A DNA stretch of 64,000 bases from a virus, in UHGV virus genome UHGV-0112899; one strand, written 5' to 3'. Within the stretch, counting starts at the first letter, position 1. Each line of letters opens with the position of its first letter. A program made the position numbers and the translations under genes. A model generated the notes under the pieces. That model did not search any database. It saw nothing but the letters and a program-made list of their open reading frames with translations, and had not been told where the DNA came from. This document shows, piece by piece, positions 1,331 through 18,618 of the stretch.

Positions 1331-1830
1331 TGGTTGCCTCCTTTGCGAATCTGTTCCGCCCATTCTTCAAGGGATTTCTCCGCATATTCACCGGACAGGC
1401 CATCAATCGGATGCGGTTCATTAGCCAACTCTTCTTTCGCTGACAAAATCATGCGTGTAACGTCGAAAACTTCACGCAAAGACTTATTGATAAATCCGTG
1501 ATTGAACGCAGCAGCAAGACGGCTTGCGGTGTAGTTAATCCCCTCGTTGCGTGCCTCCGCACGTATTTCAGCCAGGAAAGCGTCGGTGGCTGACATATTT
1601 CCTGTTGCCTTCATGGCCTTCAAAATAACCAGAACGCCATCTTGCCCAACCAACTCGGAGATAATCTCAGTGTTGTCGCCAACAACCTCACAGAATGCCT
1701 GAACAGCTTTACGAGCAAGTGCATTCTCCGCCGCCAGCGCCGCGCGCTCTTTCTCAAGTCGGGAAATTTCCGTTACATACTCAGCGTTACGCTCTGCCAG
1801 TTGTGCGGGCGTTAAACCTTCAGACTTCAT
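1327..1830 (-). CDS. hypothetical coiled-coil protein
   Basis: 167-aa ORF translationally coupled to the downstream gene. Confidence 0.5.
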   Translation of the reverse strand: MKSEGLTPAQLAERNAEYVTEISRLEKERAALAAENALARKAVQAFCEVVGDNTEIISELVGQDGVLVILKAMKATGNMSATDAFLAEIRAEARNEGINYTASRLAAAFNHGFINKSLREVFDVTRMILSAKEELANEPHPIDGLSGEYAEKSLEEWAEQIRKGGNQ

Positions 1831-2137
1831 GTACTCTCCTTTCGAAATAAACGTACTGATTAATCATTCCCAGGGGCATTTCGAGTTTTTCTGCGATCTC
1901 ACGGCGGGGAACACCACACTGATGAAGCTGCCGCGCCAGTTCTATATCGCTCTGCCGGTATTTGGCTGACTGGTGAAAGTCTCCTTTCAGAATCATGCTG
2001 ATCCGCAGTTGCCGCGCTTTAGTCCTGACAGCACCACCGGTACGCCCGATCAGTCTCCCAATACCCTCGACTGTCATAGTCCCGGCGCACTGGCGGAGTA
2101 TCATGATTTCTGCCCTTCCCCATCCCCGCCAGCTCAC
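1820..2137 (-). CDS. hypothetical small protein with HTH-like segment
   Basis: 105-aa ORF in the same operon; helix-turn-helix-like stretch GVPRREIAEKL. Confidence 0.4.
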   Translation of the reverse strand: MSWRGWGRAEIMILRQCAGTMTVEGIGRLIGRTGGAVRTKARQLRISMILKGDFHQSAKYRQSDIELARQLHQCGVPRREIAEKLEMPLGMINQYVYFERRVHEV

Positions 2138-2745
2138 GCAGAACTCCTTCTAACCAAAAGAACGCCATCTTCAGAAACAACGTTGCAGGACTTCAGGTAA
2201 TTCATTGCCTCTTTCGGTAATGGATTCTTTGGATCGGCGCTTGCCAGGGATTTCGATAACCTCATGATAAATTTGATCATTACCTTCTGACGGAGCTTGT
2301 GCTCATGAGATGCAGACAGGTAATAGGAAATGGTATGGGCTAAACGCTCACGAAGCTGTTCTGTGCCGTGATATACAGCAGCGATATCACGCAGTGCATT
2401 GACCAGTTCCCGGTAAATATGCGGAGCAACCTGGCATTCAATGTTGGTTGGTGACTCATAAATTACATTCAGCCCCAGCTTTTGAGCCAGCTCGTGCTCT
2501 GCACGAGCGCCAACTGATTCCTCCCACCCCTTGAGCAAATAGACCGCATTAGCCGAACGCACCATTGCAAGGCAAATATCCATGTATTCGCTCTGGCAGA
2601 GGCCAGCAGGTAACAGCGCCGGATTCAGAACAATATGCCCTACCTCCATCAGCTCTTTTGCTTTCGAAAAAAACGCTGTGCGGTTGTAGTCGGGATAACC
2701 AGTCATCGGACCCGCGATGTAAATTTTCATAATGCGTTTTGACAT
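2134..2745 (-). CDS. nucleoside 2-deoxyribosyltransferase-like protein (DUF4406-like)
   Basis: N-terminal MKIYIAGPMTGYPDYN motif typical of this family; ATG at 2745 with GGGGA upstream. Confidence 0.5.
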   Translation of the reverse strand: MSKRIMKIYIAGPMTGYPDYNRTAFFSKAKELMEVGHIVLNPALLPAGLCQSEYMDICLAMVRSANAVYLLKGWEESVGARAEHELAQKLGLNVIYESPTNIECQVAPHIYRELVNALRDIAAVYHGTEQLRERLAHTISYYLSASHEHKLRQKVMIKFIMRLSKSLASADPKNPLPKEAMNYLKSCNVVSEDGVLLVRRSSA

Positions 2746-2940
2746 CAAAGTTTCCCCAGGAACGTTACGCAAAAGTTGATGAGAGCAAAGAGTTCAATGC
2801 CCAGCTCAAACAACGCCAGGACAGTGAAAAACAGGGCATATAGCAACCCAATTTCTGTACCGGATTGCTGGTGGATTGCACTTATTGCGACAAGCATCAT
2901 GACCTCCTGATATAGCGTCTGAAAAAAAGTATCTTCATTT

Positions 2941-2974
2941 TGTGTTAGAAAATCAATTTTGATTTTCTAACACA
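2941..2974. promoter_or_regulatory. 34-bp perfect palindrome, putative repressor operator
   Basis: tgtgttagaaaatcaa tt ttgattttctaacaca in a divergent intergenic region; half-site recurs at five other loci. Confidence 0.5.
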
Positions 2975-3017
2975 TTTGATCAACCATAGCGGCGATGTAG
3001 ACAAACCGGGTATTTCT

Positions 3018-3593
3018 ATGAAGCAAAGCTATTGGGAGAAACAGACACAAAAAGCCCTGCAAAAACTGGCTGATCCGAAATGGCGGGAGGAACAAAGGGC
3101 AAAGCGTCTTCAGCAAGCTCAACGCCAGCAGCAGCGTGCGCGAGAAAAAGCCGCATCGCCTGAATATCGGCAAAAGAAAATTGAAAAAGCGAAGCAATAT
3201 GAACAGCGAAGAAAAGAGAAGGCCGCTTCTGCTCCTGTCAAAAAAACTCGCGCGTCACGCGGCCTGAAAGGCAGAACACTCACAGCAGATGAGCGCCGGA
3301 TACAAACTGCCATCGGTGCTCTCCCCTGCATTGCCTGCCATATGCACGGACAGCATAGCCCTGTGGTATCCCTGCACCACATCTTCGGGAGAACAGCAGA
3401 GAACGCGCATAAATACGTCCTCCCTTTGTGTAAATGGCACCATCAACACGCAGCGCCAGCAGAGATCCGCGAGCAATACCCCTGGTTGGTTCCTGTTCAT
3501 GCTGATGGAAAAATAGGCGGCAAAGCAGATTTCAGGCGGCACAATGCTGATGAAATGACGTTGTATCAGATGGTGACTGAATTAATAAATTAA
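3018..3593 (+). CDS. HNH-motif protein with basic N-terminus, Ref-like (DUF968-like)
   Basis: Lys/Arg/Gln-rich N-terminal half, then CIACHMHG...HHIFG...CKWHH Cys/His cluster; ATG at 3018. Confidence 0.45.
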   Translation: MKQSYWEKQTQKALQKLADPKWREEQRAKRLQQAQRQQQRAREKAASPEYRQKKIEKAKQYEQRRKEKAASAPVKKTRASRGLKGRTLTADERRIQTAIGALPCIACHMHGQHSPVVSLHHIFGRTAENAHKYVLPLCKWHHQHAAPAEIREQYPWLVPVHADGKIGGKADFRRHNADEMTLYQMVTELIN

Positions 3594-3607
3594 TTTTCTA
3601 ACATTTT
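3592..3607. promoter_or_regulatory. operator-like motif copy
   Basis: aattttctaacatttt matches the dispersed TGTTAGAAAAT core. Confidence 0.35.
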
Positions 3608-3924
3608 AAGTTGAATTGTGAGATCCACCGTTGTACATTCACAACCGATTGGTACACCGGTCAACTTTTTGAGACAAACCGTTTGGTTTTTCGTATGATT
3701 GCCGCCGCCATACCAATGGCGGTGCAATATAGGTGGCTGAAAAGCCCCCGTTGACTCACGGTGTTCCAGCCTTTATTGCGCCGCCACCAGACCGTGGAAC
3801 AGTCGATGGCGGCTCCGAAAGCAAGGAGTCACTACACTATGAACAGCTACTGTCTTTTCCCATCACTCGTTGTCCGCCACTCACGCGATAATCTGCATTC
3901 TTTACTCGCGCTGGGGGTGTCAAA

Positions 3925-4092
3925 ATGACCGTTCGCTACCTCAACTTTCAAATCCAGAACATCACTGGCGGTTGCTATGACTGGTTTGTCACTCTCGGAA
4001 AAGAAGTGATCACCGGGAAGCTGGATGAAGTGAAAGCTAAAGCAATGGCCTACGCCTGCAAGCAAGCCCAAAAGAAGAAAAGAAAAGCATAA
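3925..4092 (+). CDS. small basic protein (55 aa)
   Basis: ATG preceded by GGGGGTG RBS; below the ORF-track length cutoff; terminator downstream. Confidence 0.3.
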   Translation: MTVRYLNFQIQNITGGCYDWFVTLGKEVITGKLDEVKAKAMAYACKQAQKKKRKA

Positions 4093-4197
4093 GAAAACAC
4101 ACAGTTGCGCCCTGGCATTATCGTGGGGTATATTTCTACGGCACCTTAGAAAAACGGGTGCCGGGATTGGAACCCCGGATAATGCAAAAGGCGACAC

Positions 4198-4220
4198 AGA
4201 CGCCGAAAGCGTCTTTTTTT
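4198..4220 (+). terminator. rho-independent terminator
   Basis: stem agacgc/gcgtct with 5-nt loop followed by T7 run. Confidence 0.6.
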
Positions 4221-4229
4221 GTGTCATGC

Positions 4230-4400
4230 CATCGCACAGCCATGCGTAGCGTTTAGCTCAGAGATCAATGGTAGTGCTGGCTGGGCTGCCGAAAGGCAGG
4301 CCGGTTCCCTTTTGCGCCGGTAGTTCCAACCCAGTCAGTGCTACCGCCATTGAGATTGGAACCTCACGCGGTAGCTCCTTAAATTAGCAAAAGGAGGCTG
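4230..4400 (+). ncRNA. candidate structured leader / antisense-type regulatory RNA (c4-like by position)
   Basis: long-range complementarity (caatggtagtgctgg vs cagtgctaccgccattg) plus ggctgcc hairpin directly upstream of the coupled small ORF and Rha gene. Confidence 0.25.
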
Positions 4401-4405
4401 CCAAT

Positions 4406-4621
4406 ATGGCTACTATCCCTACCCCAACTCATTCTGAATTTATCTGGCGTTTCTATTCCTGCCAAAAACACCTCTATATCTGCGTAATGGCTGCTACCGA
4501 AGCAGAGGCGCGCTCATACCTTCCCGAAGAACCCTGTATTTTTGCTGCTCGCTTCACTCTTGATGCGATGGAGATCCTCAATTACTGGAATCTGCCGATG
4601 AACTGCGTGGAGGTGCACTGA
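4406..4621 (+). CDS. small protein translationally coupled to antirepressor (icd-like by position)
   Basis: AGGAGG RBS; stop overlaps the Rha start (TGATG); paralog at 55481. Confidence 0.5.
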   Translation: MATIPTPTHSEFIWRFYSCQKHLYICVMAATEAEARSYLPEEPCIFAARFTLDAMEILNYWNLPMNCVEVH

Positions 4622-5562
4622 TGAATCTGTCCATCTCTCAAAAAGCGACAATGACCAGCATTGAGATCGCGGAACTGGTGGGAAGTCGTCACTCTGATGT
4701 TAAACGCAGCATCGAAAGACTTGTTGCTAAAGGAGTTATCCAACATACGCCATTGGCTACAGTTGAGAATAATCAATCACTTAGCCCTAATAAATACACA
4801 AAAGCCTATTTCTTCGAAGGCGAACAAGGCAAGCGCGATAGTATTATCGTCGTCGCGCAGCTCTCTCCGGAATTCACCGCCCGGCTGGTGGACCGCTGGC
4901 GCGAACTGGAGAATGTCAGGGGACCGTTAAAATCAAAAGCCGAAATCCTGGCTGAAATGGCGCAAATGCATCTTGAGCATGAACGCAGGATCAACGCCGT
5001 AAATGCCCAGGTAGCCGAGGTATCGGCACAAGTGTCCAGGGTCACCGAAACACTTGAGCAGATCAAGAAAGGCAATATTCCAGAAGGCTACATTGGCTAT
5101 CGCCAGTTGGCGGCAAAATGCGGCCTGACTGAAGCCAAATGCCGCAACCTGGTCAACGCTTACCGGATACCCACTGATACGCATGAGTTTTTAACTCCCG
5201 ACGGTTTGCTTGCGCGACGCTCCATTGTGGCCCTGGCCCCCTTCCGGAAAGCCTTTAAGCAGGTTATGTCGGAGGCAGAACCACGTAACAAACGCTGGTA
5301 TCATCCCAGGATGGGGCTATTTCAGGCCATTCACCATCCTGTGCCTGAAAGTCCAAAGGCAAACCTGTCGTTGCATACCGCCAGAGAGAAGATTAAAACA
5401 GGGTATGCAACCGTATGCCGTCGAGCATCCTGGCCTGAAAGTGTCTGGGTATGGCCCGAAAGAGGCTCACGGAAAAACTGGCGCACCATTCGCGACGGCA
5501 AGATCTGTGCGATTGATTTACAGCCAGAAGATGTAGCAGCGACCGACTGGATTGTTAGTTAA
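4621..5562 (+). CDS. Rha-family phage regulatory protein / antirepressor-like
   Basis: N-terminal SIEIAELVGSRHSDVKRSIERL (Rha-type); paralog at 55705; extra C-terminal domain present here. Confidence 0.65.
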   Translation: MNLSISQKATMTSIEIAELVGSRHSDVKRSIERLVAKGVIQHTPLATVENNQSLSPNKYTKAYFFEGEQGKRDSIIVVAQLSPEFTARLVDRWRELENVRGPLKSKAEILAEMAQMHLEHERRINAVNAQVAEVSAQVSRVTETLEQIKKGNIPEGYIGYRQLAAKCGLTEAKCRNLVNAYRIPTDTHEFLTPDGLLARRSIVALAPFRKAFKQVMSEAEPRNKRWYHPRMGLFQAIHHPVPESPKANLSLHTAREKIKTGYATVCRRASWPESVWVWPERGSRKNWRTIRDGKICAIDLQPEDVAATDWIVS

Positions 5563-5600
5563 TAGATTTGCCCCGGTCATGCCGGGGCTTTAACTACTAA

Positions 5601-5939
5601 GTGACCGGACACAGCAAAATGTATGCCACGAAAAAAATTGATTTCACTTATTCTTCCGCCACAATTGAGCGGCGCTTCACCCTCATTAGAGAGTTGGAAC
5701 TGTCAAAAGTCTGGTATCAAATTCTACTGGATGAAGAGTTCTCACTGATGATAATGGCTAAAAAAGAAGCAATGCCGAATGACCGGCATAAAGTCATTGC
5801 CAGCCTTGACCTGGTGACAAACAGATACTGGGAGACAGAGGAACTGCGTGAAGCGGGAGTAATTCGTGACCTGATGGAGAGTTCCGTTCCCCGCCGCTAT
5901 CGTGCGGGAAACGAAATCTCCGTGATTAAAGGGGCTTAA
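5601..5939 (+). CDS. hypothetical protein
   Basis: 112-aa ORF; GTG or downstream ATG start uncertain. Confidence 0.35.
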   Translation: MTGHSKMYATKKIDFTYSSATIERRFTLIRELELSKVWYQILLDEEFSLMIMAKKEAMPNDRHKVIASLDLVTNRYWETEELREAGVIRDLMESSVPRRYRAGNEISVIKGA

Positions 5940-6379
5940 AGCTCACCAGCACGCTGTTTTTCAAGCGTAGATTTAACATTGGGCGCTTTCCCTTTAAAAG
6001 AATGGAAAGTGCCACATTTTTCTGTTTTAACCTCGCGCAGAGCTTCGCCATCGGCGTTCTGCCATTGATGAGATAACGTCATATCACCGCGAGAAGGAAC
6101 ATCCAGCGAGTACAACGTGTAAGTTCCCCCCATCTCGGCATACTCCTGGAACACATAGCTCATTACGTCAGATTCAGTTTTCCGGTGCGCGTTATCAACC
6201 TTATTCCCATTCAGAAATATGGCGTTCGGATAGATTTTTATATCAAACCTACCGCACTTTACCTGCAAATTCCCAGCATTAGCAATCAAAGGAAAAAACA
6301 TTAATGCCGCTATAGCCAGCTTATTCAAGTTTGATGTCTTTGTTGAAGAAAATGGTTTCTCTTTTTTTATGCGTATCAT
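5936..6379 (-). CDS. secreted protein of unknown function
   Basis: N-terminal signal peptide ending LIANA-G; GGAG RBS 8 nt upstream of ATG 6379. Confidence 0.5.
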   Translation of the reverse strand: MIRIKKEKPFSSTKTSNLNKLAIAALMFFPLIANAGNLQVKCGRFDIKIYPNAIFLNGNKVDNAHRKTESDVMSYVFQEYAEMGGTYTLYSLDVPSRGDMTLSHQWQNADGEALREVKTEKCGTFHSFKGKAPNVKSTLEKQRAGEL

Positions 6380-6422
6380 TTCATTAACTCCATACATTGT
6401 TGTCTTTTCATCCAATTTGAGG

Positions 6423-7052
6423 TTAATTAGTACAATTCATTTTTGCAGCGACTTCGGCTACCCCACGATCAATGTAAGGCTGCTCACTTAATATCTTTTG
6501 GATCTCACTACGAATGCATTCCGCTGTAGGTTGCTTAGGTGCTTGTTTTTGCTTCGCGGATCGTTCAAGTTCCATCATGTTATTGAATCCTGCCACATCA
6601 CTTTGCCGAAGCATCCCTTTCCGGATAAGAAACTGCTGCCCTTCAGGCACCCAAGCCAGCATATACAAAGGCTGCAATAGATCTCCCATTCCTTGCTGAC
6701 GATAAAGCTCAAACTGCAACACGCCGTTACTTAACACCGACATTGTGTCTTTGGTGGAATACCCTGTCTTTTGTATGGCTTTGCCTGTTTCATCTGCTGC
6801 ATATGCAAATACACAGAACTCAATGTTGCTTTTAAAGAATGGCTCTACAGGTTTCAGCGGGATATTTTCTTTCTGGCAATAGTTTGAAACTTCATCAGGC
6901 GTATAGTTTGTTTTGGCGTTTCGCAACACCTTCAGCCCAGCCTCATACTTTGCAGGTAACGCGCCTGCATAGGCAGCATTAAGAGAAACTCCCCCCAATA
7001 TAACCGCGAGCACTGCTCCCAAAACCCTTAACTTCACAAAACCATCCTTCAT
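6423..7052 (-). CDS. secreted protein of unknown function
   Basis: signal peptide MKDGFVKLRVLGAVLAVILGGVSLNAAYA; same operon as 5936-6379. Confidence 0.5.
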   Translation of the reverse strand: MKDGFVKLRVLGAVLAVILGGVSLNAAYAGALPAKYEAGLKVLRNAKTNYTPDEVSNYCQKENIPLKPVEPFFKSNIEFCVFAYAADETGKAIQKTGYSTKDTMSVLSNGVLQFELYRQQGMGDLLQPLYMLAWVPEGQQFLIRKGMLRQSDVAGFNNMMELERSAKQKQAPKQPTAECIRSEIQKILSEQPYIDRGVAEVAAKMNCTN

Positions 7053-7267
7053 GTAAACAAACTGAAGTTTTATGTTACAAAAACAAACATCTACGCCAAA
7101 ATGACTTAGGCCAAATTCAGCGCGAATAAAAAATTCAAAAAAATTGTTGACACTATTCTGGAAATCACAATCTGGACAAAATCCATTGCGCAAACGGCTC
7201 CCGTTGAAGGTTCTTTTGACGACTAACTTTCAGCCGATGCGCGGTAGGGAGTCATAACGCCAAAGCA

Positions 7268-7291
7268 GGCCGCCATGTGCGGCCTTTTTTT
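7268..7291 (+). terminator. rho-independent terminator / attenuator
   Basis: stem ggccgc/gcggcc, loop catgt, T7 run; lies 27 nt upstream of the 7318 start. Confidence 0.5.
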
Positions 7292-7317
7292 GTGCCTGCT
7301 ATCGTGGAGTAAAAGCC

Positions 7318-7971
7318 ATGCAAAAGATCGCAATATTCAGTCTTTCTACTAACAAGCCGCTGATGGCTACGGCAGTCCTGAAAGACGGCGCGCTTGTAAT
7401 TGACAAAGTAAAGCCGCTCCCTGCATCTGCTATTGAACAAAAACGAAAAATTCCACCAGCAATTGCCGAGCTGCGTAAAAGTGAATTTAAGGTGCTGGTT
7501 GACGAAATCACGCCAACCATTTCAGCCGGTACAGGTGCCAGCCAGGTAACATTAAAAACACGGCACGCCGACGGCAGAGCAGCGATCATTGTCGGCATGG
7601 AGAGATACCGGGAGCTGAAACTACAAAGGCTGCTATCCCTGCCTGACAAGAACAAAGGGGCATTTGAGATCCCCGACTCTATCGTCGATACCGAATACAA
7701 CGGCAACGGTGAAGAGGTTTATCGAGTTAACTGGCAAGATATCCGACCAGAGCACATCCTGATGATTCTGTGCTGCTATGCAACGGTATACCACAATGTT
7801 GCCAGCGCGGATTACCTGAAACAAATGACAGGAGCGGTAGAGAAAGAAAACAAAGCAGGGATAATGGCCTCGTTCCTGTCCATTATCAGCGATCAAAAAG
7901 CTAAAGCAGGAAATACCCAACCAAAATCGCTGGCCGGGCAAGTAATTGATGAAGATACGGTGATACTTTAA
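7318..7971 (+). CDS. hypothetical protein
   Basis: 217-aa ORF with GGAG RBS. Confidence 0.5.
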   Translation: MQKIAIFSLSTNKPLMATAVLKDGALVIDKVKPLPASAIEQKRKIPPAIAELRKSEFKVLVDEITPTISAGTGASQVTLKTRHADGRAAIIVGMERYRELKLQRLLSLPDKNKGAFEIPDSIVDTEYNGNGEEVYRVNWQDIRPEHILMILCCYATVYHNVASADYLKQMTGAVEKENKAGIMASFLSIISDQKAKAGNTQPKSLAGQVIDEDTVIL

Positions 7972-8302
7972 TCAACTCAGTAGCTTTGTTAACTCCCTTA
8001 ATACCAGGTAGAAGAGTAACAAAAATACTAACGCCAGTATTTGCGTGGTCAACGAGGCGTTCATAAACAGAACAATTAGCTTTAACAATTCGAGAATAAC
8101 GTCCATGTCATTCACACTATTTAATTTTTAATCTACAGCCAGCAAACAATGAAGCTGGCCCCCGCATAAAGATTAATGAAAGTCACTTGTCACCAGTGAG
8201 GGGATTTATGAACCACATCCCCCTGAACTGGTGGACTGTCTGTTTCTCGCATTTCACACCCTGCATACAGTTCCCCCCAGGTTATGACTGTGAGGAACTG
8301 TT

Positions 8303-8632
8303 ATGAGTTACAGCAGGCTCGACGATCGATGCATTGAAGACGATGTGCTGCGCGCACTATTCCATCAGGAGATGATCAAGCGGGTATCGGAGTATCACTC
8401 CGATAATTTCCAGTACACGATAAAAATTGATGAGGTTTATCGCTCAGACCTGGCGGCCTATCGCGCCTATGGCAACGCTGATTTGCGCTGGGTATTTCGC
8501 GTGCTGGTGGGCCATGAGTCAGAAATGGAAGAAATGCCGGTCGGGACAACGTTAACTCTTCCTGACGCAGCATGGCTAAGAAACAAGATTCGCGATTACG
8601 CTGGCTCGGCACCGGAGATAGAAAATGCCTGA
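8303..8632 (+). CDS. hypothetical protein
   Basis: 109-aa ORF with GAGGA RBS; 8-nt overlap with the next gene. Confidence 0.5.
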   Translation: MSYSRLDDRCIEDDVLRALFHQEMIKRVSEYHSDNFQYTIKIDEVYRSDLAAYRAYGNADLRWVFRVLVGHESEMEEMPVGTTLTLPDAAWLRNKIRDYAGSAPEIENA

Positions 8633-9821
8633 CTTCCTGAAAAATCAGGACGGGCGATATATCACTGACGGCCTGTCCTCTAAGGATTTCACACGCGTAT
8701 TTGAACTCATCAGGAAAGAGCAAAACCGCAAACGCCGCCAGGCGCACAGGACACTCACGCCGGGCAGGCTTAGGAATAAATCAGCTGAAGACATTCTTAA
8801 GCTGGGGAAAAAGAAAGGCGGCACGTTCTTTACGCGTGACGATCTGAAAGGCTTCGAAAAGCTGCGAAGCAAAGCACGCGAAAAATATGACAGCAAGACG
8901 GCTGGCATCACATACGCACAACTGGTAGCGTCCAGCCAGGCTATCGATATTAAGCGAGCAAATAACGCCGTAGACGACGGTTCTGGTATCAAAAGAGCTA
9001 CGCCCGTATCTCTTCGTCACAATGTGATTAATATCCGCGTGGAAGCGTCCGATATATCCGTTCACCAGCACCACATTGTCCGGGTACGTTTTGAAGAATG
9101 GGATCAGATGGTCGATGACATCGCAGAAGACGATAAATCAGCCCTGAAAGTCACAAAATCACTGTGTGCCGGGCGAGTGTCTTTCGACTGTGACTGCGGT
9201 CGCCATCAATACTGGTATCGCTACATCGCCACTGCGGGTAACTTTGCCCTGGCCCCGCCAAAAGAATACGCCTATCCAAAAGTTCGCAACCCTAAGCTGC
9301 AAGGCGTCGCCTGTAAACATGTGATCCACTCAATGACACGACTACAGTCTGCCAGTTGGCAGATGAGTATTGCTCGTGCGCTACAAAAGGCTGCAACGCA
9401 AATTGCATTTGGTGACGATCGCCGCCGTACAACCAAACACTTCTCAAAAGAAGACGAGAAGGAGTTTAATCGCAATCGTAGCAGTAAAACGAACGTTGAA
9501 GCCGCCAAACGCGAATGGAGGCTCTATCAGAAGCGCCAGGCAGCTTTAAGTACAAAACTGGCGAAGGACAACGGCAAGATCGACAAGCTACGTGACCAAC
9601 TGACCAGGGCCAGAAAGTTGTCAGACGCACAGAAAAAACGAGCGGCAGCAAAAGAAGCGGCCTTGCAACGTGAGAAACAGAAAAACAAGGAGCTTCAGCA
9701 ACGCCTTGCCGATCAGTTCGCACTGAAGAAGCAGGCGTTCATTGATGCGCTGGTCATGGCAGGAACGTCACCTGGGCAAGCTGAAAAAATGTTTATGGAG
9801 TACGTGAAGAAAGGTTCTTGA
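8625..9821 (+). CDS. SWIM-like zinc-finger protein with Lys-rich coiled-coil C-terminus
   Basis: CDC...CKH motif (CxC-x39-CxH) followed by a basic coiled-coil tail. Confidence 0.45.
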   Translation: MPDFLKNQDGRYITDGLSSKDFTRVFELIRKEQNRKRRQAHRTLTPGRLRNKSAEDILKLGKKKGGTFFTRDDLKGFEKLRSKAREKYDSKTAGITYAQLVASSQAIDIKRANNAVDDGSGIKRATPVSLRHNVINIRVEASDISVHQHHIVRVRFEEWDQMVDDIAEDDKSALKVTKSLCAGRVSFDCDCGRHQYWYRYIATAGNFALAPPKEYAYPKVRNPKLQGVACKHVIHSMTRLQSASWQMSIARALQKAATQIAFGDDRRRTTKHFSKEDEKEFNRNRSSKTNVEAAKREWRLYQKRQAALSTKLAKDNGKIDKLRDQLTRARKLSDAQKKRAAAKEAALQREKQKNKELQQRLADQFALKKQAFIDALVMAGTSPGQAEKMFMEYVKKGS

Positions 9822-9855
9822 TTGACAACAAAGGCGGTCATACAGACCGCCGAAC

Positions 9856-10215
9856 TCATACACCAACCAGGCTTTCAAGAGGAATGCCAAACTGGGAATG
9901 TAAACGACGAATCATAGGTAACGTTAAATTTCGTGTTCCATTTAGCACTTCGTAAACACGATTTGACTTACCAATCGCCGGTTCCAGATCCTTCACGGTC
10001 AGCCCTTGCTGTTCCATACGGAATTTAATGGCCTCAATAGGTGATGGTGGCTCAATTGGGTAATGTTTTTTCTCGTACTCCTCAATGAGAAGACACATGA
10101 CCTCAAAGAAATCACCTTCCGGGGTGTTCATTTCCGGTTCGTTATCGAACATCGGTTCGACCGCACGCAGTGCGGCCTCATAATCTTGTTCTGTACGGAT
10201 AGGTTTAATGTTCAT
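9856..10215 (-). CDS. HigA-type (XRE HTH) antitoxin-like protein, orphan copy
   Basis: C-terminal LEPAIGKSNRVYEVLNGTRNLTLPMIRRLHSQFGIP resembles E. coli K-12 HigA-type HTH; no adjacent cognate toxin. Confidence 0.5.
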   Translation of the reverse strand: MNIKPIRTEQDYEAALRAVEPMFDNEPEMNTPEGDFFEVMCLLIEEYEKKHYPIEPPSPIEAIKFRMEQQGLTVKDLEPAIGKSNRVYEVLNGTRNLTLPMIRRLHSQFGIPLESLVGV

Positions 10216-10271
10216 TAATTCCAAAGGAAAGCCCACTTGTTAAGTGGGCTTTTTGTATGTGTTTTACTATA

Positions 10272-10610
10272 TCAGGCTGCTTTTTTATTCAGGTTCCGCT
10301 GAGAAATAAATTTTTCAGCAGTATTGATACGACTTAACTCTTCCTGAACGCGCATATCATTTTCGACTTCCCACAGGTCTACTGCGGTCTGAAGATTAAT
10401 CCAAAAATCTACAGAAGTATCGAATGCTTTTGCCAGGCGATATGCCATATCCATCGTTAGCTTACGATTATTATTAACAAGAGCACTTACGGTGTTACGA
10501 TGAACATGAAGTATTTCTGCTAACTCGTTGATCTTAAGCTCTAACGGCTCCAGGTATTCGTACAGCAGGATATCACCTACAGTCGTCGGTTTTCTGGTTG
10601 CCTGTTTCAT
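10272..10610 (-). CDS. higA: HigA antitoxin (XRE HTH)
   Basis: VGDILLYEYLEPLELKINELAEILHVHRNTVSALVNN...FWINLQ HTH signature; downstream of higB. Confidence 0.7.
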   Translation of the reverse strand: MKQATRKPTTVGDILLYEYLEPLELKINELAEILHVHRNTVSALVNNNRKLTMDMAYRLAKAFDTSVDFWINLQTAVDLWEVENDMRVQEELSRINTAEKFISQRNLNKKAA

Positions 10611-10681
10611 TTTTTGCCCTTACTAGCGTGCGTATTAAGTGGACTCTGGTCAGTACCCGGTCCATCCGCCGGGTATTTGTT

Positions 10682-10984
10682 TTAGTATTTGTGAGGGTCG
10701 AGATACAAGTCCTCGGCCTTTCCGTTAACCCACTTAAAAATTAACCTGTATTGCTTATTCACCCTTATTGATGAATAGCCGTTTAGCTTCCCTGACAATT
10801 CCTCATACCGATTACCTGGTGGTGATCTCAAGTCCTTCCAAGTAGTTGCAGCATTGATAATATCCAGCTTCCGCAACAATGTAATCTGAATATCAGAAGG
10901 TATCTTTTTGTGTGGTATTGAAAATTCAAAAAAATCATCAAGCCACTCATCCCTGAAATTCTTTATGTTAATCTTTTTGCTCAT
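10682..10984 (-). CDS. higB: HigB toxin (RelE/ParE superfamily)
   Basis: 100 aa; ...PPGNRYEELSGKLNGYSSIRVNKQYRLIFKW... signature; toxin-first gene order. Confidence 0.7.
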   Translation of the reverse strand: MSKKINIKNFRDEWLDDFFEFSIPHKKIPSDIQITLLRKLDIINAATTWKDLRSPPGNRYEELSGKLNGYSSIRVNKQYRLIFKWVNGKAEDLYLDPHKY

Positions 10985-11147
10985 CGATCATTTTATCCTC
11001 CATGATTATTAATGAATGTCATAATGATAGCGCACCGTTGCACCGTGCGCAAGTGCATATTGTAACAATTCCCCTCCTCCATCCAAAATCACAATCTCCC
11101 GAAAATCTTCCTTTCGATACCTGATAAATCGACCTTTGAGGACGCTT

Positions 11148-11939
11148 ATGGGCCGTTTTGATGAATGGCTTGCTGATGATGCAAGCCTGATGAGAAAGGG
11201 AACAGAACATGACAGCACGCAGAGAGAAGAGACAACGACGGTTGAAGCGAATGAAGGAAGCACAACGGAAAATGGGAATGTCAGTGCAGGGCCATTCAGT
11301 ATTCTGGAAGAGCACGCCGCCACCCAATCTAATAGCCATGATAATTGGCCTGATAATGCTGGTGACTCTGTTACGGAAGTGATTGAACCTGACATCGCTC
11401 CCCTACCGGCATCGCTCGCTAACAGAGAACCAAACCAGCAGCTTAAAACCCGATATAACGGACATAAAGCGTTCAACGACCAGATCCGCGCCGATTGGAT
11501 GCTCATTATTGAATCAAGCCCTGACGCGTTCGAGGCGCTTTTATACCGCCCGGCTGATGGCACCTATGGCGTCGTAAACGATGAAACAGGTGAAGAGTCT
11601 TTCACGCAACTGGACAACAACCAGCGTGAGCTTACCTATCTGGAACCGGAAATCGTATACGTCCTGGATAACCCGGACGGAAGGGATTCGTTTCATGCCA
11701 TTGATGCCGATGGAGAACAGGATGGTCTTGCTGATGAAGTGCTAATCCTGCGTATTGCTGCAAACAACGTACCTGTTGGTTCAATCCTGGAATGGAACGA
11801 AGAAATGGCGAATGGCCTCGCCCGCCGCTGGTGGTACGTGCATCGAATCTTCAGCTACGGAACACAACACGTCGGCTCCCTTTATTACTGCATCCCGGCC
11901 AGGAACTTTGATACCACTCAAAACGGAGTGATCGAATGA
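11148..11939 (+). CDS. hypothetical protein (possibly tail/baseplate-associated)
   Basis: ATG 11148 after GAGGA; ATGA coupling to the next gene. Confidence 0.4.
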   Translation: MGRFDEWLADDASLMRKGTEHDSTQREETTTVEANEGSTTENGNVSAGPFSILEEHAATQSNSHDNWPDNAGDSVTEVIEPDIAPLPASLANREPNQQLKTRYNGHKAFNDQIRADWMLIIESSPDAFEALLYRPADGTYGVVNDETGEESFTQLDNNQRELTYLEPEIVYVLDNPDGRDSFHAIDADGEQDGLADEVLILRIAANNVPVGSILEWNEEMANGLARRWWYVHRIFSYGTQHVGSLYYCIPARNFDTTQNGVIE

Positions 11940-12703
11940 CACCCAACAAAACTCTCCTGTCCCGCATTGGCGAGTGGCAGACAACGCGTACTGGAAAATT
12001 CCAGACAACTGGTCTGGAAAGAGTGGATAACGCTTTTGCTACGCTAATCAGTGACATTTTTTCTGACGTAACGCTGGTGGAACCAGCAAAAGAAGAAAGG
12101 CGCTTTGCATCATTCCTGAGTCGCCCACCAGCGGAGCGTGTTTATGTTGCCCGTTTTGATAACGCGGTCGAGTTCCTTAAAGCGGTTCGCCGTGCTAATG
12201 CCGGGCAAGGGAGAAAGCCAGAGAATCCGAACATTAATCGCGATGCACTCCCTCTGATTAATATCTCGCGCTCAATGGATATCAGCTATATCAACAATGA
12301 CCAGCAGATAGACCGCAAAAGATGTGATCACTTCTGCGAACCTGGCAGCGGTATGCCTTTAGTAGCCCTGGAATACACCCAGGCAAATCTGACGTATGAC
12401 GTTACATTAATGGCGACGGATAAGGCGACCATGAGTCTGATGTGTAACTCGCTAGGAGCACGTCTTCGCTTGATGGCAGGAACGCAGTTTGAAGCAACAA
12501 CCCCGCTGGTACGAGTACCCGTCCCGCTAATTTGCGCGATTCAGGATGCTAAAGACATCAGTTTTACTGATGTTTCAGCCCCAATTGGGGAAGAGCGTAT
12601 TTATGCTGCACAAACGGCAATTAGTGTTATAGCAGACGTGATCACCGCCTGGGAGCTGGACGCGAAACGAATTATTACTGAAACCTCTCTGAGAATGGGG
12701 TAA
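11936..12703 (+). CDS. hypothetical protein (possibly tail/baseplate-associated)
   Basis: 255-aa ORF coupled to flanking genes. Confidence 0.4.
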   Translation: MTPNKTLLSRIGEWQTTRTGKFQTTGLERVDNAFATLISDIFSDVTLVEPAKEERRFASFLSRPPAERVYVARFDNAVEFLKAVRRANAGQGRKPENPNINRDALPLINISRSMDISYINNDQQIDRKRCDHFCEPGSGMPLVALEYTQANLTYDVTLMATDKATMSLMCNSLGARLRLMAGTQFEATTPLVRVPVPLICAIQDAKDISFTDVSAPIGEERIYAAQTAISVIADVITAWELDAKRIITETSLRMG

Positions 12704-12706
12704 GCC

Positions 12707-13687
12707 ATGTCCCAGGAGCTACAGCAATACTTTCTACAGTCCATTACCATCAACGGAAACAAAGTGCCCAGGGAGTGGATATTCACTGCCGTATATGTGG
12801 AAAAGGCAAACCTGCGAGCACCATTGCTGAAACTGGAAATTCACGACATTACCGGCACCATAATTGATGACTGGAAAACAAAATACGGCGCAGCACTGGT
12901 TGCAGAGATGGGAGATCCACAAGGCAATTCAGGCACGTTTAAAACAACTTTTTTCGTAACATCTGCGGTGCTGGCTGGTGATGTCATCACGGTCATTGCA
13001 GTCAGTGAAGACGTTCGGATATTTAAGATCCCCGCTATACGGGCTAACCTGCATACAAATAAAACGCCTGATACCATTTTCAAGACGTATACCGGTACAC
13101 TGAAAATCGCCTCCAGCGCATTGAAACGAAGCTGTACGTACCATCTTTCCGCCGGGGAAAAACCCTCCAAAATGCTATCTGAAATGGCCCGCGATAAAGG
13201 CGCTTTATGCTGGGCCTGCCGTGGTCAGTTTAACTTTTATACATTAGCTGACCTTATGAAAGCCAAACCATCATTCACCTATGAAGGGAACAACCCCAGG
13301 GCGGAATACACGATTTCAAAAATGAGGCTTATACAGCAAGAGTATGCCGTTACGGCAAATACTCAGTATCGATTTACCGGCTATTCAATGACTGAAGGCT
13401 ATGTCGAATATGGCGATAGCTCACTTCCAATACGCTATATATCCGATCCGGATATGGAAACTCTGCGCAATATGCAATTGTCGCTCGTACCCAAAATGGA
13501 TATTGAGGTCGCGGGTAATCCCGACATCACGCCGGGAATGGTTATTGAGATCCTCGTGTATCGTTACGACCAGGAAAATAAGCTGGACGAATCGTTGCCT
13601 CGTAAGCTGCTGGTGAAAAACGTAGCCCATTTTGAAGACCGGATCGGCTATACAACACGAATGATATTAGGAGTACCCAACCAGTGA
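12707..13687 (+). CDS. putative baseplate hub / tail protein
   Basis: 326 aa, immediately upstream of the spike-like gene; assignment by position and size only. Confidence 0.3.
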   Translation: MSQELQQYFLQSITINGNKVPREWIFTAVYVEKANLRAPLLKLEIHDITGTIIDDWKTKYGAALVAEMGDPQGNSGTFKTTFFVTSAVLAGDVITVIAVSEDVRIFKIPAIRANLHTNKTPDTIFKTYTGTLKIASSALKRSCTYHLSAGEKPSKMLSEMARDKGALCWACRGQFNFYTLADLMKAKPSFTYEGNNPRAEYTISKMRLIQQEYAVTANTQYRFTGYSMTEGYVEYGDSSLPIRYISDPDMETLRNMQLSLVPKMDIEVAGNPDITPGMVIEILVYRYDQENKLDESLPRKLLVKNVAHFEDRIGYTTRMILGVPNQ

Positions 13688-14361
13688 AACGCAGAGCGCA
13701 AATCGTAGGGACCAAACACCCTGCCGGACTTATGCGAGCGCAGGTCCGCATACTGCCTGACTGGGACGGTGTACCGGATGAAGACCTCCCATGGGCAGAG
13801 TATCAAATGCCTATCGGTAACGCCTTTACACCTACAGTCAGCGGCGATTTAGTCTGGGTCGAATTTCCTTATCTGGATGCTAAAGGCAGGATAGACACGC
13901 GCCGACCTTTAATCGTTGGCGCGGCGCAGGATGCCCCAGGAGGCGTACCAAATGTGCCTCCGGAAGCCTCCGGACAAGGAAGTGGATGGTCGCCAGAAGA
14001 AGTTGATGGTGCTCCTGCCCGCCCCCAGTTTTCGGCGACTGAAGATTTTGTTATTCACCGAAACAATATCCTTGAGGTCAGAACGGCTGGCGGTGGCTAT
14101 GAAATAGCAAACACCGCCGCAGGATCAAGGATAGGGATGAACGAATCCGGCCAGATTTACATAATCGGCCCGGCGAATATAGTGCTTAATGCTGGTGGTG
14201 AGGTTAACGTCAAATCAAGCAGCAAAACCAATGTATCCTCTGATGGAGACGTTAATGTAAAAGGCAGCAATGTAACCGTCGCCGCTGATGGTGATATAGC
14301 CCTGAAAGCTGGTGGCGCGCTAAAAGCAACAGCGAGCAATTTCTCCTTTGTAAAGGGATAG
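13684..14361 (+). CDS. baseplate spike protein (gpV-like)
   Basis: N-terminal VRILPDWDGVPDEDLPWAEY...GDLVWVEF OB-fold-like motif and C-terminal beta-helix-like repeats. Confidence 0.45.
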   Translation: MKRRAQIVGTKHPAGLMRAQVRILPDWDGVPDEDLPWAEYQMPIGNAFTPTVSGDLVWVEFPYLDAKGRIDTRRPLIVGAAQDAPGGVPNVPPEASGQGSGWSPEEVDGAPARPQFSATEDFVIHRNNILEVRTAGGGYEIANTAAGSRIGMNESGQIYIIGPANIVLNAGGEVNVKSSSKTNVSSDGDVNVKGSNVTVAADGDIALKAGGALKATASNFSFVKG

Positions 14362-14367
14362 CAAAAT

Positions 14368-14415
14368 GCAAAACTGTGTTAGATAATTGAGTTTTATTTT
14401 CTAACACAGTTTTGC
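14368..14415. promoter_or_regulatory. 48-bp near-perfect inverted repeat with operator core
   Basis: gcaaaactgtgttagataa ... ttttctaacacagttttgc between the spike gene and rdgC. Confidence 0.5.
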
Positions 14416-14420
14416 GAAAC

Positions 14421-15326
14421 ATGAGATTAGTCGCCTTTAAAAACATATACGTCTATCGCCTTGCCCGCGAAATTAAACTGGACTCAACCACCGTTAGTGA
14501 TGCCTTAAGCCAATTCACATTCACTCCATGCGCATCACAAGAAATGGCAAAAGTCGGATGGGTGCCGGTTCTGGCTGACAACCTGATCCATGAATACCAC
14601 GGTTTTCTACTTCTCCAGCAACAGCGAGAAATTAAGCTCCTGCCCTCCCATGTCATTAAGGAGGAAGTGCAGAAAAAAGTGGAAAAGCTCGAAAATGAGC
14701 AATCTCGTAAGCTGAAGAAGTCGGAAAAAAACACCCTGAAGGATGAAGTTCTCCACTCTTTGTTGCCTCGCGCATTCACTCGCAAATCATTGTCGCGAAT
14801 CCTTATTGATCGCGACAACTATCTGGTCTTCGTAGAAGCTTCCAGCGCCAGAAAAGCAGAAGAAATGCTGGCGCTCTTACGTAAATCACTTGGCAGCCTG
14901 CCAGTGATTCCATTCACGCCGATAGAACCGCTCGAAATGACTATGACCGAATGGTTCAAGTCAACATTTCCTCAAGGCTTTAAAGCAGGCGAAGAAGCCA
15001 TATTGAAATCTCTGTTCGATGACGGCGGCGCAGTTCGTTGCAAGAAAGTAGACCTACAGTCAGAGGAAATAATGACTCATATTGAAGCCGGAAAAGTTGC
15101 AACAACAGTTGCAATCAACTGGCAGGACCGCGCGACCTTCAGGTTAAACGATGACATGAGCATCAAAGCACTGACGTTTTGCGATGATCTCTATGACCAG
15201 AACGATGACATCGACCGTGAAGATGTTGCCCAGCGATTTGATGCTGACTTCATTCTGTTCACAAGCGAATTATCCGCGATGTTTAGCTCGCTGGTGGAGG
15301 CCATTGGCGGTGAAGCAGAGCATTAA
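14421..15326 (+). CDS. rdgC: recombination-associated protein RdgC
   Basis: strong full-length similarity to E. coli RdgC (FKNIYVYRL, FTPCASQEMAKVGWVP, KLKKSEKNTLKDEVLHSLLPRAF, DREDVAQRFDADFIL). Confidence 0.85.
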   Translation: MRLVAFKNIYVYRLAREIKLDSTTVSDALSQFTFTPCASQEMAKVGWVPVLADNLIHEYHGFLLLQQQREIKLLPSHVIKEEVQKKVEKLENEQSRKLKKSEKNTLKDEVLHSLLPRAFTRKSLSRILIDRDNYLVFVEASSARKAEEMLALLRKSLGSLPVIPFTPIEPLEMTMTEWFKSTFPQGFKAGEEAILKSLFDDGGAVRCKKVDLQSEEIMTHIEAGKVATTVAINWQDRATFRLNDDMSIKALTFCDDLYDQNDDIDREDVAQRFDADFILFTSELSAMFSSLVEAIGGEAEH

Positions 15327-15342
15327 TAACCGACCGCTGGCG

Positions 15343-15990
15343 GTGAGTCTTTGTGATTATACAGGGAATATGGTTTCCCCCTGGCTGGAACACGGCATTG
15401 ATGCAGTCATTGTCGATCCGCAACACCAGGAGTCCGGCAGCCAATTGATGGAGTCAGGTGCTGTACTCACACGTATCAGCGCAATTATTGACAGTGATGA
15501 GGTCTACAATTTCCTTCGGAAAAATTTGCACAGAGTTGTATTTTTAGCCGGTTTCCCTCCATGTACTGACCTGGCTGTATCTGGCGCACGCTGGTTCGCA
15601 GATAAAGCAAAAAAAGATCCGGTTTTCCAGTTCAAAGCAATGCAGGTTGTCTGGCAGTGTTACGACATTGCAAAGATGATTGGTTGCCCGTACATGATTG
15701 AAAACCCGGTCAGCCAAATATCGACATTCTGGCGTAAACCTGATCACATATTCCATCCTTATCACTTCACTGCATATTGCAAGGAAGACAATTACACCAA
15801 AAAAACATGCCTGTGGAGCGGACAAGGATTCATCATGCCAACTCCGCGAATCGACAAGTCGTTAGGTGATCCAGATAACCGAATACACAAGGCACCGCCA
15901 GGGCCTGAAAGAGCGAATTTTCGTAGCGCGACACCTTACGGTTTTGCAAGAGCTGTATTTGAAGCAAATAAGGAGGGAATCCGTGGCTGA
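15343..15990 (+). CDS. short C5-cytosine methyltransferase-like protein
   Basis: GFPPCTDLAVSGARW (PC-motif-like) and MIENP (ENV-like); only ~215 aa; start GTG 15343 or ATG 15370. Confidence 0.3.
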   Translation: MSLCDYTGNMVSPWLEHGIDAVIVDPQHQESGSQLMESGAVLTRISAIIDSDEVYNFLRKNLHRVVFLAGFPPCTDLAVSGARWFADKAKKDPVFQFKAMQVVWQCYDIAKMIGCPYMIENPVSQISTFWRKPDHIFHPYHFTAYCKEDNYTKKTCLWSGQGFIMPTPRIDKSLGDPDNRIHKAPPGPERANFRSATPYGFARAVFEANKEGIRG

Positions 15991-16900
15991 TATTGGTGCT
16001 AAATTTATTTCTTATAGCGACAATCATCGTCCTGCGGCGGAAGCCACTATCAGCCATATGCGACGTATTCGCTCGGAGGACGAATTTGATCGCCCAGTCT
16101 TTAAGTGGGTCGGCGGCAAATTTTCTGCACTGCCCATTATCTTCGAACACCTGCCCCACGGAAAACGGTTGATAGAACCTTTCGTTGGAGGTGGCGCTGT
16201 TTTCACTAATGCCGGATTTAAAAGCAACCTGCTGAACGATATCAATAATGACCTGATTAACTTCTATCAGACATTGCAGCGTGAAGGGCATTCTCTTATC
16301 ACACTGGCATATCGTTTTTTTCAGGATTACAACTCTGCTGATGCATTTTTGAATGTTCGCAATGCATTCAACAATGGTGCTTATGATTCCCTTCACCATG
16401 CAGCGGCGTTCCTGTATCTCAATCGTCATTGTTTTAATGGCGTCACTCGCTATAACCGTAAAGGAGAGTTCAACGTCGGATATGGAAAGCAGAAATCACC
16501 CCACTTCCCTCTCGCGGAAATGGAGGCGTTCCTGGCTGACGATATTTCAAAGTATTCGGAATTTGTGTCCGGCGATTTTGCTGGTGTAATTGAGGCTGCC
16601 GGGAATGATGATGTGATTTTCTGCGATCCCCCCTATGAACCATTGCCCGACACTACCGGATTTACAAATTACTCAGGGCATAGCTTTAGGTTTGAAGATC
16701 AACAACGGCTGGTGTCACTGCTGGTGGATGCCCACAGACGCGGAGCGAAAATTGTGATAACAAACAGTGGTGCGCCTAACATTCGCGAACTTTACGTTGG
16801 CAATGGCTTCAAGGTGTATCCTATGCCATCCCGTCGCTCTGTATCCTGTAAAGCATCAACGCGAATGATAGCTAACGACATTATAGCCACACTTAATTAA
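15983..16900 (+). CDS. dam: DNA adenine methyltransferase (Dam family)
   Basis: FKWVGGKFS, EPFVGGGAVF, FLYLNRHCFNGVTRYN, DPPY motifs; GTG start after AAGGAGGG. Confidence 0.85.
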   Translation: MADIGAKFISYSDNHRPAAEATISHMRRIRSEDEFDRPVFKWVGGKFSALPIIFEHLPHGKRLIEPFVGGGAVFTNAGFKSNLLNDINNDLINFYQTLQREGHSLITLAYRFFQDYNSADAFLNVRNAFNNGAYDSLHHAAAFLYLNRHCFNGVTRYNRKGEFNVGYGKQKSPHFPLAEMEAFLADDISKYSEFVSGDFAGVIEAAGNDDVIFCDPPYEPLPDTTGFTNYSGHSFRFEDQQRLVSLLVDAHRRGAKIVITNSGAPNIRELYVGNGFKVYPMPSRRSVSCKASTRMIANDIIATLN

Positions 16901-16901
16901 G

Positions 16902-16926
16902 AAAAGCCCCATATGGGGCTTTTATA
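16902..16926. terminator. bidirectional rho-independent terminator
   Basis: stem aagcccc/ggggctt with atat loop flanked by A/T runs; between convergent dam and partition operons. Confidence 0.6.
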
Positions 16927-16939
16927 ACATCAAACAAGC

Positions 16940-17030
16940 ACCGTTACGGTACACTAACAACACCATTCTGGTACTAAAAAGGAATCAAAGTAGCCTCAAA
17001 ATAACACATGGACCCAAAACGGTGTCATTC
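16940..17030. repeat. partition-site-like repeats (two direct, one inverted copy of CACCNTTNNGGTAC)
   Basis: caccgttacggtacactaa, caccattctggtactaaa and inverted gacccaaaacggtg; related copy at 18149-18176. Confidence 0.4.
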
Positions 17031-17035
17031 CGGCG

Positions 17036-18176: not shown

Positions 18177-18200
18177 CACCAAATTAGAACCATAACAGTA

Positions 18201-18224: not shown

Positions 18225-18242
18225 TTTGAAGATGTAGATTTG

Positions 18243-18608: not shown

Positions 18609-18618
18609 GGCAACCTCA

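Follow-up and report, generated by a model that had tools for sequence, protein, structure and literature searches.

Dispersed Intergenic Sites of a D6-Like, P1-Family Phage-Plasmid as Probable Operators of a C1-Type Master Repressor

Introduction

In phage P1, 22 scattered operators, asymmetric and 17 bp long, are bound by the C1 repressor (PMC8546580); the P1 genes ref, dmt, and kilA are under C1 control, and their induction takes place at the lytic switch (PMC4713147). The present analysis concerns a 64,000-nucleotide (nt) stretch of the UHGV virus genome UHGV-0112899 (hereafter, the window, meaning the whole stretch), in which a short word recurs in intergenic regions, including a palindromic copy at positions 2941–2974. 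An earlier note made from the letters alone (hereafter, the original prediction) had compared these sites with the scattered C1 operators of P1, had attributed them to a master repressor encoded outside the window, and had named a late-promoter activator site as the alternative. According to the evidence given below, the sites are, with a probability of about 85%, operators of a C1-type master repressor of a D6-like (P1-family) plasmid prophage.

Judged by sequence identity, the element is a D6-like, P1-family phage-plasmid: positions 1721–19630 of the window had 84% identity to Escherichia phage D6 in reverse orientation, and the window was 95–98.5% identical to ~90-kb non-mobilizable E. coli plasmids (e.g., NZ_CP104667 and NZ_LR890273, 98%). 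The D6 record (NC_050154 / MF356679) contains homologues of ref, icd/ant (two copies), hrdC, repL, lpa, c1, and the P1 morphogenesis genes; no operators were found in its annotation. A literature search, which did not cover the D6 genome paper (Gilcrease & Casjens 2018), returned no paper linking D6 to operators.

Results

Motif Distribution and Enrichment

The sites were described by an 11-mer, TGTTAGAAAAT, a longer form, TGTTAGAAAATTAA, and a core 8-mer, [GA]TTAGAAA. With no more than two mismatches, the longer form was found eight times in the 64-kb window against 0.69 matches expected, a count reached in 0 of 100 dinucleotide shuffles, and the 11-mer with no more than one mismatch was found 11 times (1.5 expected). 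The relaxed core gave 14 matches in total, 10 of which lay wholly within the 5.4 kb left non-coding by a greedy open reading frame map and regarded here as intergenic (mean of 0.62 and maximum of 4 in 500 intergenic-only dinucleotide shuffles), while one straddled a gene boundary (an 11th if scored as intergenic) and three lay in the 59.3 kb of coding DNA. The density of the core was 37-fold higher in intergenic than in coding DNA, and a similar density inside coding regions, which had been named beforehand as evidence against operators, was not seen. The first position weight matrix (PWM; eight sites) was overfitted, missing the ATTAGAAA variants, and pattern-based counts were used instead.

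When weaker copies were added, approximately 12 half-sites, nearly all intergenic, were counted in the window. The motif search of the complete element that had been proposed, carried out on a reconstruction made of the window and the remainder of a relative, gave ~21 half-sites (12 and 9, respectively). The proposed half-site consensus, T(G/A)TGTTAGAAAATTAA, which is TTAATTTTCTAACA in the orientation of the P1 operators, is asymmetric and ~18 bp long. The word, asymmetric and ~17 bp long, recurs at numerous scattered places, most of them intergenic or close to promoters, as in a P1-type C1 regulon. A literature search with the motif word returned unrelated primer matches only.

Correspondence with the C1 Operators of P1

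The RefSeq record of P1 (NC_005856), in which all C1 operators and late promoters are annotated, served as the reference. The motif was confirmed at all six intergenic loci at which it had been predicted, and two candidates beyond them (57223–57244 and the weak 7069–7090) were added. The predicted sites and their P1 counterparts are as follows:

2941–2974, both strands: predicted divalent operator of convergent half-sites TGTGTTAGAAAATCAA / TTGATTTTCTAACACA, 16-nt arms 100% complementary, 2-nt centre; counterpart of P1 Oref, upstream of ref
3586–3607 (core 3590–3603), - strand: predicted monovalent operator overlapping the ref stop codon (3591–3593); counterpart of P1 Omat, the ref stop codon being overlapped in both, in the same orientation
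7069–7090, + strand: weak candidate TTTATGTTACAAAAACAAACAT with the core G substituted, simB–mat intergenic region, PWM score 14.8–16, low confidence
14368–14415, both strands: predicted divalent operator, 20-nt arms 95% complementary, 8-nt gap, upstream of the hrdC/rdgC ATG at 14421; counterpart of P1 Odmt, upstream of the hrdC operon (P1 uhr-hrdC-dmt)
22452–22464, - strand: weak third copy (+ strand TTGTTCTAATG), below the PWM threshold, low confidence; TCTAATG kept in D6
22464–22485, + strand: strong predicted monovalent operator, PWM score 26–28; D6 counterpart at 54200–54221
22514–22535, - strand: predicted operator ATTAGAAAAAT, score 21.3, abutting the late-promoter motif of gene 23 (22541–22553)
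53912–53933, - strand: predicted monovalent operator with the best PWM score (29.6), between pro (end 53902) and the repL-like gene (54102–55064); counterpart of P1 OrepL, upstream of repL (P1 kilA-repL), in the same orientation
55118–55155, both strands: predicted divalent operator (half-sites 55118–55139 and 55134–55155), core offset 27, just past the repL stop; counterpart of P1 Orlf
55202–55223, - strand: half-site TTTCTAATG, predicted operator, directly after the -35 of TTGATC-17-TATATT (55205–55233); together with 55134–55155, counterpart of P1 Oc4, upstream of c4-icd-ant
57223–57244, - strand: candidate operator TTTCTGTTAGATAATACATTGA, intergenic, PWM score 12–18, medium to low confidence

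The proposed likeness to the scattered C1 operators was borne out in position and orientation for Oref, Omat, Odmt, OrepL, and Orlf/Oc4, and when the half-site TTAATTTTCTAACA and P1 ATTGCTCTAATAAATTT were aligned on TCTAA, the gene-relative orientation was the same at six of six places. The promoter at 55205–55233 is homologous in DNA to P1 P1c4/P51b. The remainder of the P1 set consists of Olpa and the c1-proximal operators, for which matching D6-type half-sites were seen in relatives only; in all, sites were found at P1's C1-controlled early and lytic genes (ref, mat/ref-end, dmt-hrdC, kilA-repL, rlf, c4-icd-ant, lpa, and c1/coi). The P1-type operator ATTGCTCTAATAAATTT, with no more than three mismatches, had 0 matches in the window, and the sites do not conform to the P1/P7 consensus. 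Conversely, a D6-type PWM applied to P1 gave two weak coding-region matches at a score cut-off of 13 and none at an operator position (D6's own sites score 15–27). There being no P1-type match and the TCTAA core alone being common, the sites are therefore better regarded as operators of a heteroimmune relative than as part of P1/P7 immunity.

Settings of the Individual Sites

The site at 2941–2974 lies in the divergent region between ref (3018–3593, + strand) and a leftward early operon (from 2900, - strand). It had been described as a 34-bp perfect palindrome; its 16-nt arms (2941–2956 and 2959–2974) are perfect, but the 2-nt centre is non-palindromic. On either strand, its central TTGATT hexamer resembles a -35, and TTGATT-17-GATACT forms a promoter-like element on the - strand. 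The site at 3586–3607, conserved in D6 and in the relatives L005 and L006, is followed by a promoter-like TTGAAT-17-TACATT (3611–3639) at the head of the operon leading toward isrK/C4/icd/ant. Sites at both antirepressor cassettes had been expected; this proved correct for the second cassette (55.2–56.4 kb), but the site nearest to the first is 3586–3607, ~660 bp upstream of C4. For the weak candidate at 7069–7090, a matching weak site was found at the orthologous position of D6 (72194–72215).

The 48-bp inverted repeat predicted upstream of hrdC was present, with its complementarity confined to the two arms listed above. Its left half-site is a variant, TAGATAAT, whose GATAAT is -10-like (candidate promoter TAGCAA-17-GATAAT), and both the pair and the GATAAT variant are kept in D6. 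Between the orf52 homologue (22059–22451, - strand) and the divergently oriented capsid gene 23 (22611–24308, + strand), three copies had been counted, of which 22464–22485 is strong, 22514–22535 good, and 22452–22464 weak; the first and the last of these form a divergent pair. The sites do lie in the divergent region upstream of the capsid gene, but the late-promoter motif at 22541–22553 is nearer to that gene. The site 22514–22535 overlaps a leftward -10-like AAAAAT, and its position beside a late promoter resembles the Omat/LPmat and O26/LP26 layout of P1.

All three copies predicted in the region 55122–55221 were recovered (55118–55139, 55134–55155, and 55202–55223). The right half-site of 55118–55155 lies within the spacer of a promoter-like TTGATG-16-TATGAT (55137–55164), and downstream of the promoter-like element at 55205–55233 are c4-a1b1 (55227–55279), a C4 RNA (55348–55433), icd, and ant (55705–56412). 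The candidate at 57223–57244, upstream of the gene at 57302 and darB, overlaps the -10 of TTCATC-17-TATTAT.

Pair Geometry and Promoter Overlap

In the convergent pairs of the window, D6, NZ_LR890273, and pEF-4, the core offset was exactly 27 in 10 of 10 cases (GTTAGAAA-N12-TTTCTAAC), with the following core positions:

Window: 2944/2971, 14378/14405, and 55123/55150
D6: 64117/64144, 76618/76645, and 80710/80737
L005: 6039/6066
L006: 5781/5808, 8219/8246, and 24367/24394

The core centres are 20 bp apart, approximately two helical turns, and therefore lie on the same face of the DNA; the fixed spacing points to cooperative or dimeric binding. The core is directly adjoined by a -35-like TTGATN at four sites. 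A strict sigma-70 scan found promoters at one of five loci, and a laxer scan yielded further candidates. Two promoter-like sites (55137–55164 and 55205–55233, nine of 12 matches) hold half-sites in their spacers, and promoter overlap is plausible for the ref, hrdC, and 57.2-kb sites.

Conservation

Alignments of the ref, ref-stop, hrdC, repL, c4, and gene 23 intergenic regions revealed the sites as conserved blocks amid diverged flanks, and 2941–2974 was a conserved island in four lineages with diverged flanks. A 71-bp query containing the palindrome matched 100 of 5,426 complete E. coli genomes, with all matches plasmid-borne, 0 chromosomal matches, and no annotated feature beneath any match; in the distant matches, the palindrome and ~15 bp of flank aligned and nothing more. 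An explanation by a host site was rejected, the palindrome region having no chromosomal matches.

C1 Repressor and Its Co-Variation with the Motif

Neither a C1-family nor an Lpa gene was found in the window by tblastn or by a profile of the 55-sequence C1 family searched against all six frames, in agreement with the prediction that the master repressor is not encoded there; c1 is present in the complete relatives. In the part of NZ_LR890273 absent from the window, a 345-amino-acid protein is encoded beside cre-like and pacAB genes. Both this protein and P1 C1 match phrog_1678 (E-values of 6 × 10−159 and 3 × 10−140, respectively), the precomputed Pfam family of the former is PF27008 (Phage_P7_repressor_C1), and the two share 21% identity over 241 residues (E-value = 1 × 10−7, BLASTP). 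The D6-type C1 is 62 amino acids longer than P1 C1 and has extra C-terminal helices.

The motif was found 20 bp, ~105 bp, and ~190 bp upstream of c1 in NZ_LR890273, as well as upstream of lpa, on both sides of pmgS, beyond the cre homologue, and in the interval separating the ppp and pdcB homologues. D6 has the same motif set, including copies upstream of c1 (195–216) and lpa (4628–4649). In these complete relatives, the C1-family gene is preceded by its own sites; the window is without c1.

Upstream of c1 and lpa, the word GTTAGAAA persists across lineages with C1 proteins 100, 81, 69, 48, and 43% identical to the 345-amino-acid protein; among these are D6 (81%) and E. fergusonii pEF-4 (69%), and the word is kept at ref too. 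In Pantoea eucalypti pEuc3 (C1 31% identical), the D6-type word was not found at the c1, lpa, and ref places, and an exact 12-mer, GCAATTCTAAGG, precedes both the c1 and the lpa homologue (16496–16507 and 22915–22926, respectively); motif discovery in pEuc3 gave two clear copies only. This 12-mer is a candidate third operator specificity around the TTAGA core. In P1 (C1 21% identical), the operator word is ATTGCTCTAAT. TTAGA/TCTAA is common to the D6-type, Pantoea, and P1 words, a pattern of word and repressor that, at the level of sequence, fits heteroimmune members of one repressor family.

Late-Promoter Motif

Inspection of the regions upstream of late genes revealed a different motif, AAATCACAAACTG, followed 3–4 nt on by a -10-like TAnnnT, with 13 matches in the window against 2.6 expected (no more than two mismatches); the + strand carries 12 of these. 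Copies precede eight late gene starts by 42–70 bp (gene 7, upfC, gene 23, pmgB, R, lydA, the ddrB-like gene, and prt), and a ninth lies 156 bp upstream of mat:

7162, 11086, 19786, 22541, 31115, 38628, 43268, 47034, and 51153, all on the + strand: late motif AAATCACAAACTG

These places include orthologues of P1 LP23, LPs, LPdar, LPpro, and LPmat, and the motif is presumably the D6-type Lpa site. The -22 box of P1, ACAAGTGACT, was not enriched in the window (32 matches vs. 51 expected).

Neighbouring Genes and Other Features

The genes and RNAs adjoining the sites are as follows:

3018–3593, + strand: Ref nuclease
14421–15326: RdgC/HrdC (RdgC Pfam match, E-value = 1 × 10−100)
54102–55064: RepL-like protein
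4141–4219: isrK (Rfam)
4264–4351: C4 RNA (Rfam)
55227–55279: c4-a1b1 (Rfam)
55348–55433: C4 RNA (Rfam)

The first antirepressor cassette (4141–5562) comprises the isrK-like RNA, the C4 RNA at 4264–4351, and icd-ant (4406–5562); the second (55227–56412) comprises c4-a1b1, C4 RNA, icd, and ant. The two Rha-type Ant proteins of the window have Phage_pRha and winged helix-turn-helix (HTH) matches. With two C4 RNAs, c4-a1b1, and isrK identified by Rfam, the window therefore has two cassettes of the P1 immI-like type, whereas P1 has one. No tRNAs were found in the window, and an origin of the sites in tRNA or other RNA genes was rejected, since the Rfam RNAs adjoin the sites and do not lie on them.

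Three GATC (Dam) sites are clustered at 53951–53985, between the operator and the repL-like gene, and recall the three annotated in the kilA/repL promoter region of P1. At the left end of the window, positions 1–1700 (ead/Ea22-like and small early-left genes) matched parts of Stx-converting lambdoid prophages (92–98% identity) instead of D6; to judge from these identities, the early accessory genes there indicate mosaic exchange.

Discussion

Proposed Mode of Action

In the lysogen, a 345-amino-acid C1-family repressor, encoded ~20 kb outside the window beside the cre-like recombinase and pacAB, would bind ~18-bp asymmetric half-sites, either single or arranged as convergent pairs of fixed spacing. 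These half-sites would overlap or abut the -35, the spacer, or the -10 of sigma-70 promoters, and because of this overlap the bound repressor would exclude RNA polymerase from early and lytic promoters. Promoter occlusion by C1, as in P1, would be the simplest mechanism. The predicted targets in the window are hrdC, repL, ref together with the long early operon divergent from it, the orf52 operon next to the capsid gene, and both c4-icd-ant cassettes, the first of them by way of the operon that extends to it from the ref stop. Relatives would add lpa and, as a case of autoregulation, c1 itself. Once repression is lifted, through antirepressors or loss of C1, Lpa would be switched on and would activate the separate set of late promoters.

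Such an operator set is to be expected in the P1 phage family and does not represent a novel type of system; it is unannotated in databases. The operator word would define the immunity regulon of widespread ~90-kb phage-plasmids of E. coli and Salmonella, would allow the genes silent in the lysogen to be predicted (ref, hrdC, repL, the two antirepressor cassettes, and lpa), and offers an explanation of heteroimmunity with P1. The words ATTAGAGCAAT of P1, CTTAGAATTGC of Pantoea, and GTTAGAAAAnT of the D6 clade, all built around TTAGA, may form a series of repressor–operator co-evolution.

Alternative Explanations

The possibility that the sites bind some other protein of the element, such as the Rha/winged-helix Ant or the small HTH proteins of the early-left operon and toxin–antitoxin region, draws on the Phage_pRha and winged-HTH matches of the Ant proteins and on the several HTH genes annotated in D6 and its relatives. 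It is nevertheless unlikely, since the sites individually take the place of the P1 C1 operators, at matching positions and in matching orientation, three of them cluster upstream of c1 like the c1-proximal operators of P1, and the word follows the C1 lineage at 43–100% identity and changes at 31% and 21%. Moreover, an asymmetric half-site suits a monomeric binder of the C1 type, as known from P1, better than a dimeric HTH protein. A common early-promoter architecture (a -35 TTGATN with an A/T-rich spacer, or a UP-like element) or a host nucleoid-protein site, in either case without a dedicated repressor, would account for the A/T-richness of the motif and for the TTGATN hexamers abutting the core at four sites, and H-NS, too, binds P1 ref (PMC4713147). 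However, the invariant G and the TTAGA core lie outside the promoter consensus, many sites are without a suitably spaced -10, the spacing is exact in all 10 convergent pairs, and the palindrome region is confined to D6-like plasmids, with none of the 5,426 E. coli genomes giving a match on the chromosome. This explanation is regarded as very improbable.

The alternative named in the original prediction, namely, that the sites are the recognition element of Lpa-dependent late promoters, agrees with the presence of an Lpa homologue in relatives (PF25716, E-value = 2.5 × 10−50) and with the location of 22514–22535 next to the upstream region of the capsid gene. It was rejected and is regarded as extremely unlikely: late operons are preceded by the separate, strand-specific motif AAATCACAAACTG, which already accounts for the late promoters, whereas TGTTAGAAAAT is missing from most late-operon places and instead precedes ref, hrdC, repL, and c4-icd-ant, as well as lpa and c1 in relatives, and its occurrence in both orientations and as palindromes is unlike a promoter element.

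Several points weigh against the identification of the sites as C1 operators. The likeness to the P1 operators consists of a 5-bp core with A/T-rich flanks and could partly be due to chance, and the combined consensus was drawn from sites picked by a PWM trained on window sites and is partly circular. The link of the sites to C1 rests on relatives, the repressor being encoded outside the window, and the co-variation in pEuc3 amounts to two copies of one 12-mer, for which a chance of ~0.03 was estimated. The promoter-like elements near 3586–3607, 22464–22485, and 53912–53933 are weak. We infer C1 binding, repression, and the stoichiometry at paired sites from this evidence as a whole.

Predicted Fold of C1

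The D6-type C1 was modelled with AlphaFold2 on the basis of an alignment of 55 sequences, which gave a pLDDT (predicted local distance difference test) of 95.1 and a pTM (predicted template modelling score) of 0.82. When this model was used as a Foldseek query against solved structures, the top four matches were all Tus–DNA complexes (E-values of 8 × 10−7 to 8 × 10−6, probability 1.0, TM-score 0.36–0.44), and the next match had an E-value of 0.6. No C1–Tus link was found at the sequence level, no paper mentioning both C1 and Tus was found in a literature search, and the C1 family, a small one with 59 cluster representatives in a set of 1.84 billion proteins, has no solved structure. Tus, the replication terminus protein of E. 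coli, uses inter-domain beta-strands to read a long asymmetric site as a monomer, and P1 C1 has been reported to bind asymmetric operators as a monomer. In the model, the family-invariant residues R157 and R159 are placed on a long strand (155–170), and the extra C-terminal helices of the D6-clade C1 (~276–342) are absent in homologues of P1 size; these helices might underlie the pairs of fixed spacing.

It is tentatively proposed, at somewhat less than even odds, that this repressor and the whole P1/P7 C1 family are monomeric clamps of the Tus fold that read DNA through inter-domain beta-strands rather than a helix-turn-helix, and that the C-terminal extension of the D6 clade pairs such clamps across convergent half-sites (20 bp) in a geometry unlike that of P1. 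If this proposal holds, the dispersed operators, several of which lie at gene 3′ ends, could also act as orientation-dependent roadblocks. The likeness, if confirmed, would explain the long-known asymmetry of the P1 C1 operators.

Comparison with Known Systems

The likeness to Tus–Ter, with its asymmetric ~21-bp sites, is at the level of a predicted fold; the two differ in function (fork arrest vs. transcriptional repression) and have no sequence similarity. Like P1, with its Lpa-dependent late promoters consisting of a -22 box (ACAAGTGACT) and a -10, the element has such promoters at orthologous late operons, with AAATCACAAACTG as the box. The TGTTAGAAAAT motif does not belong to the P1-type Lpa late promoters, being found in either orientation, in palindromes, and in front of early genes. 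In Obanab, the sole annotated divalent operator of P1, the relative orientation of the two 17-bp sites is the opposite one and the sites have 6 bp in common, whereas the pairs described here are convergent and the centres of their cores lie 20 bp from each other.

The closest parallel is with the C1 operators of P1 and P7, with which the sites share a dispersed, asymmetric arrangement around a ~90-kb plasmid prophage (~21 here vs. 22 in P1), the gene neighbourhoods, a probable overlap with sigma-70 promoter elements, the repressor family, and the TCTAA core; beyond the TCTAA/TTAGA core, the sequences differ (TTAATTTTCTAACA here vs. ATTGCTCTAATAAATTT in P1). Phage D6 has the same gene order, ~84% DNA identity, a C1 that is ~80% identical, and the motif at orthologous places, whereas the window represents a sister lineage, the D6 ref palindrome being imperfect and the D6 repL site being TTGCTAACA.
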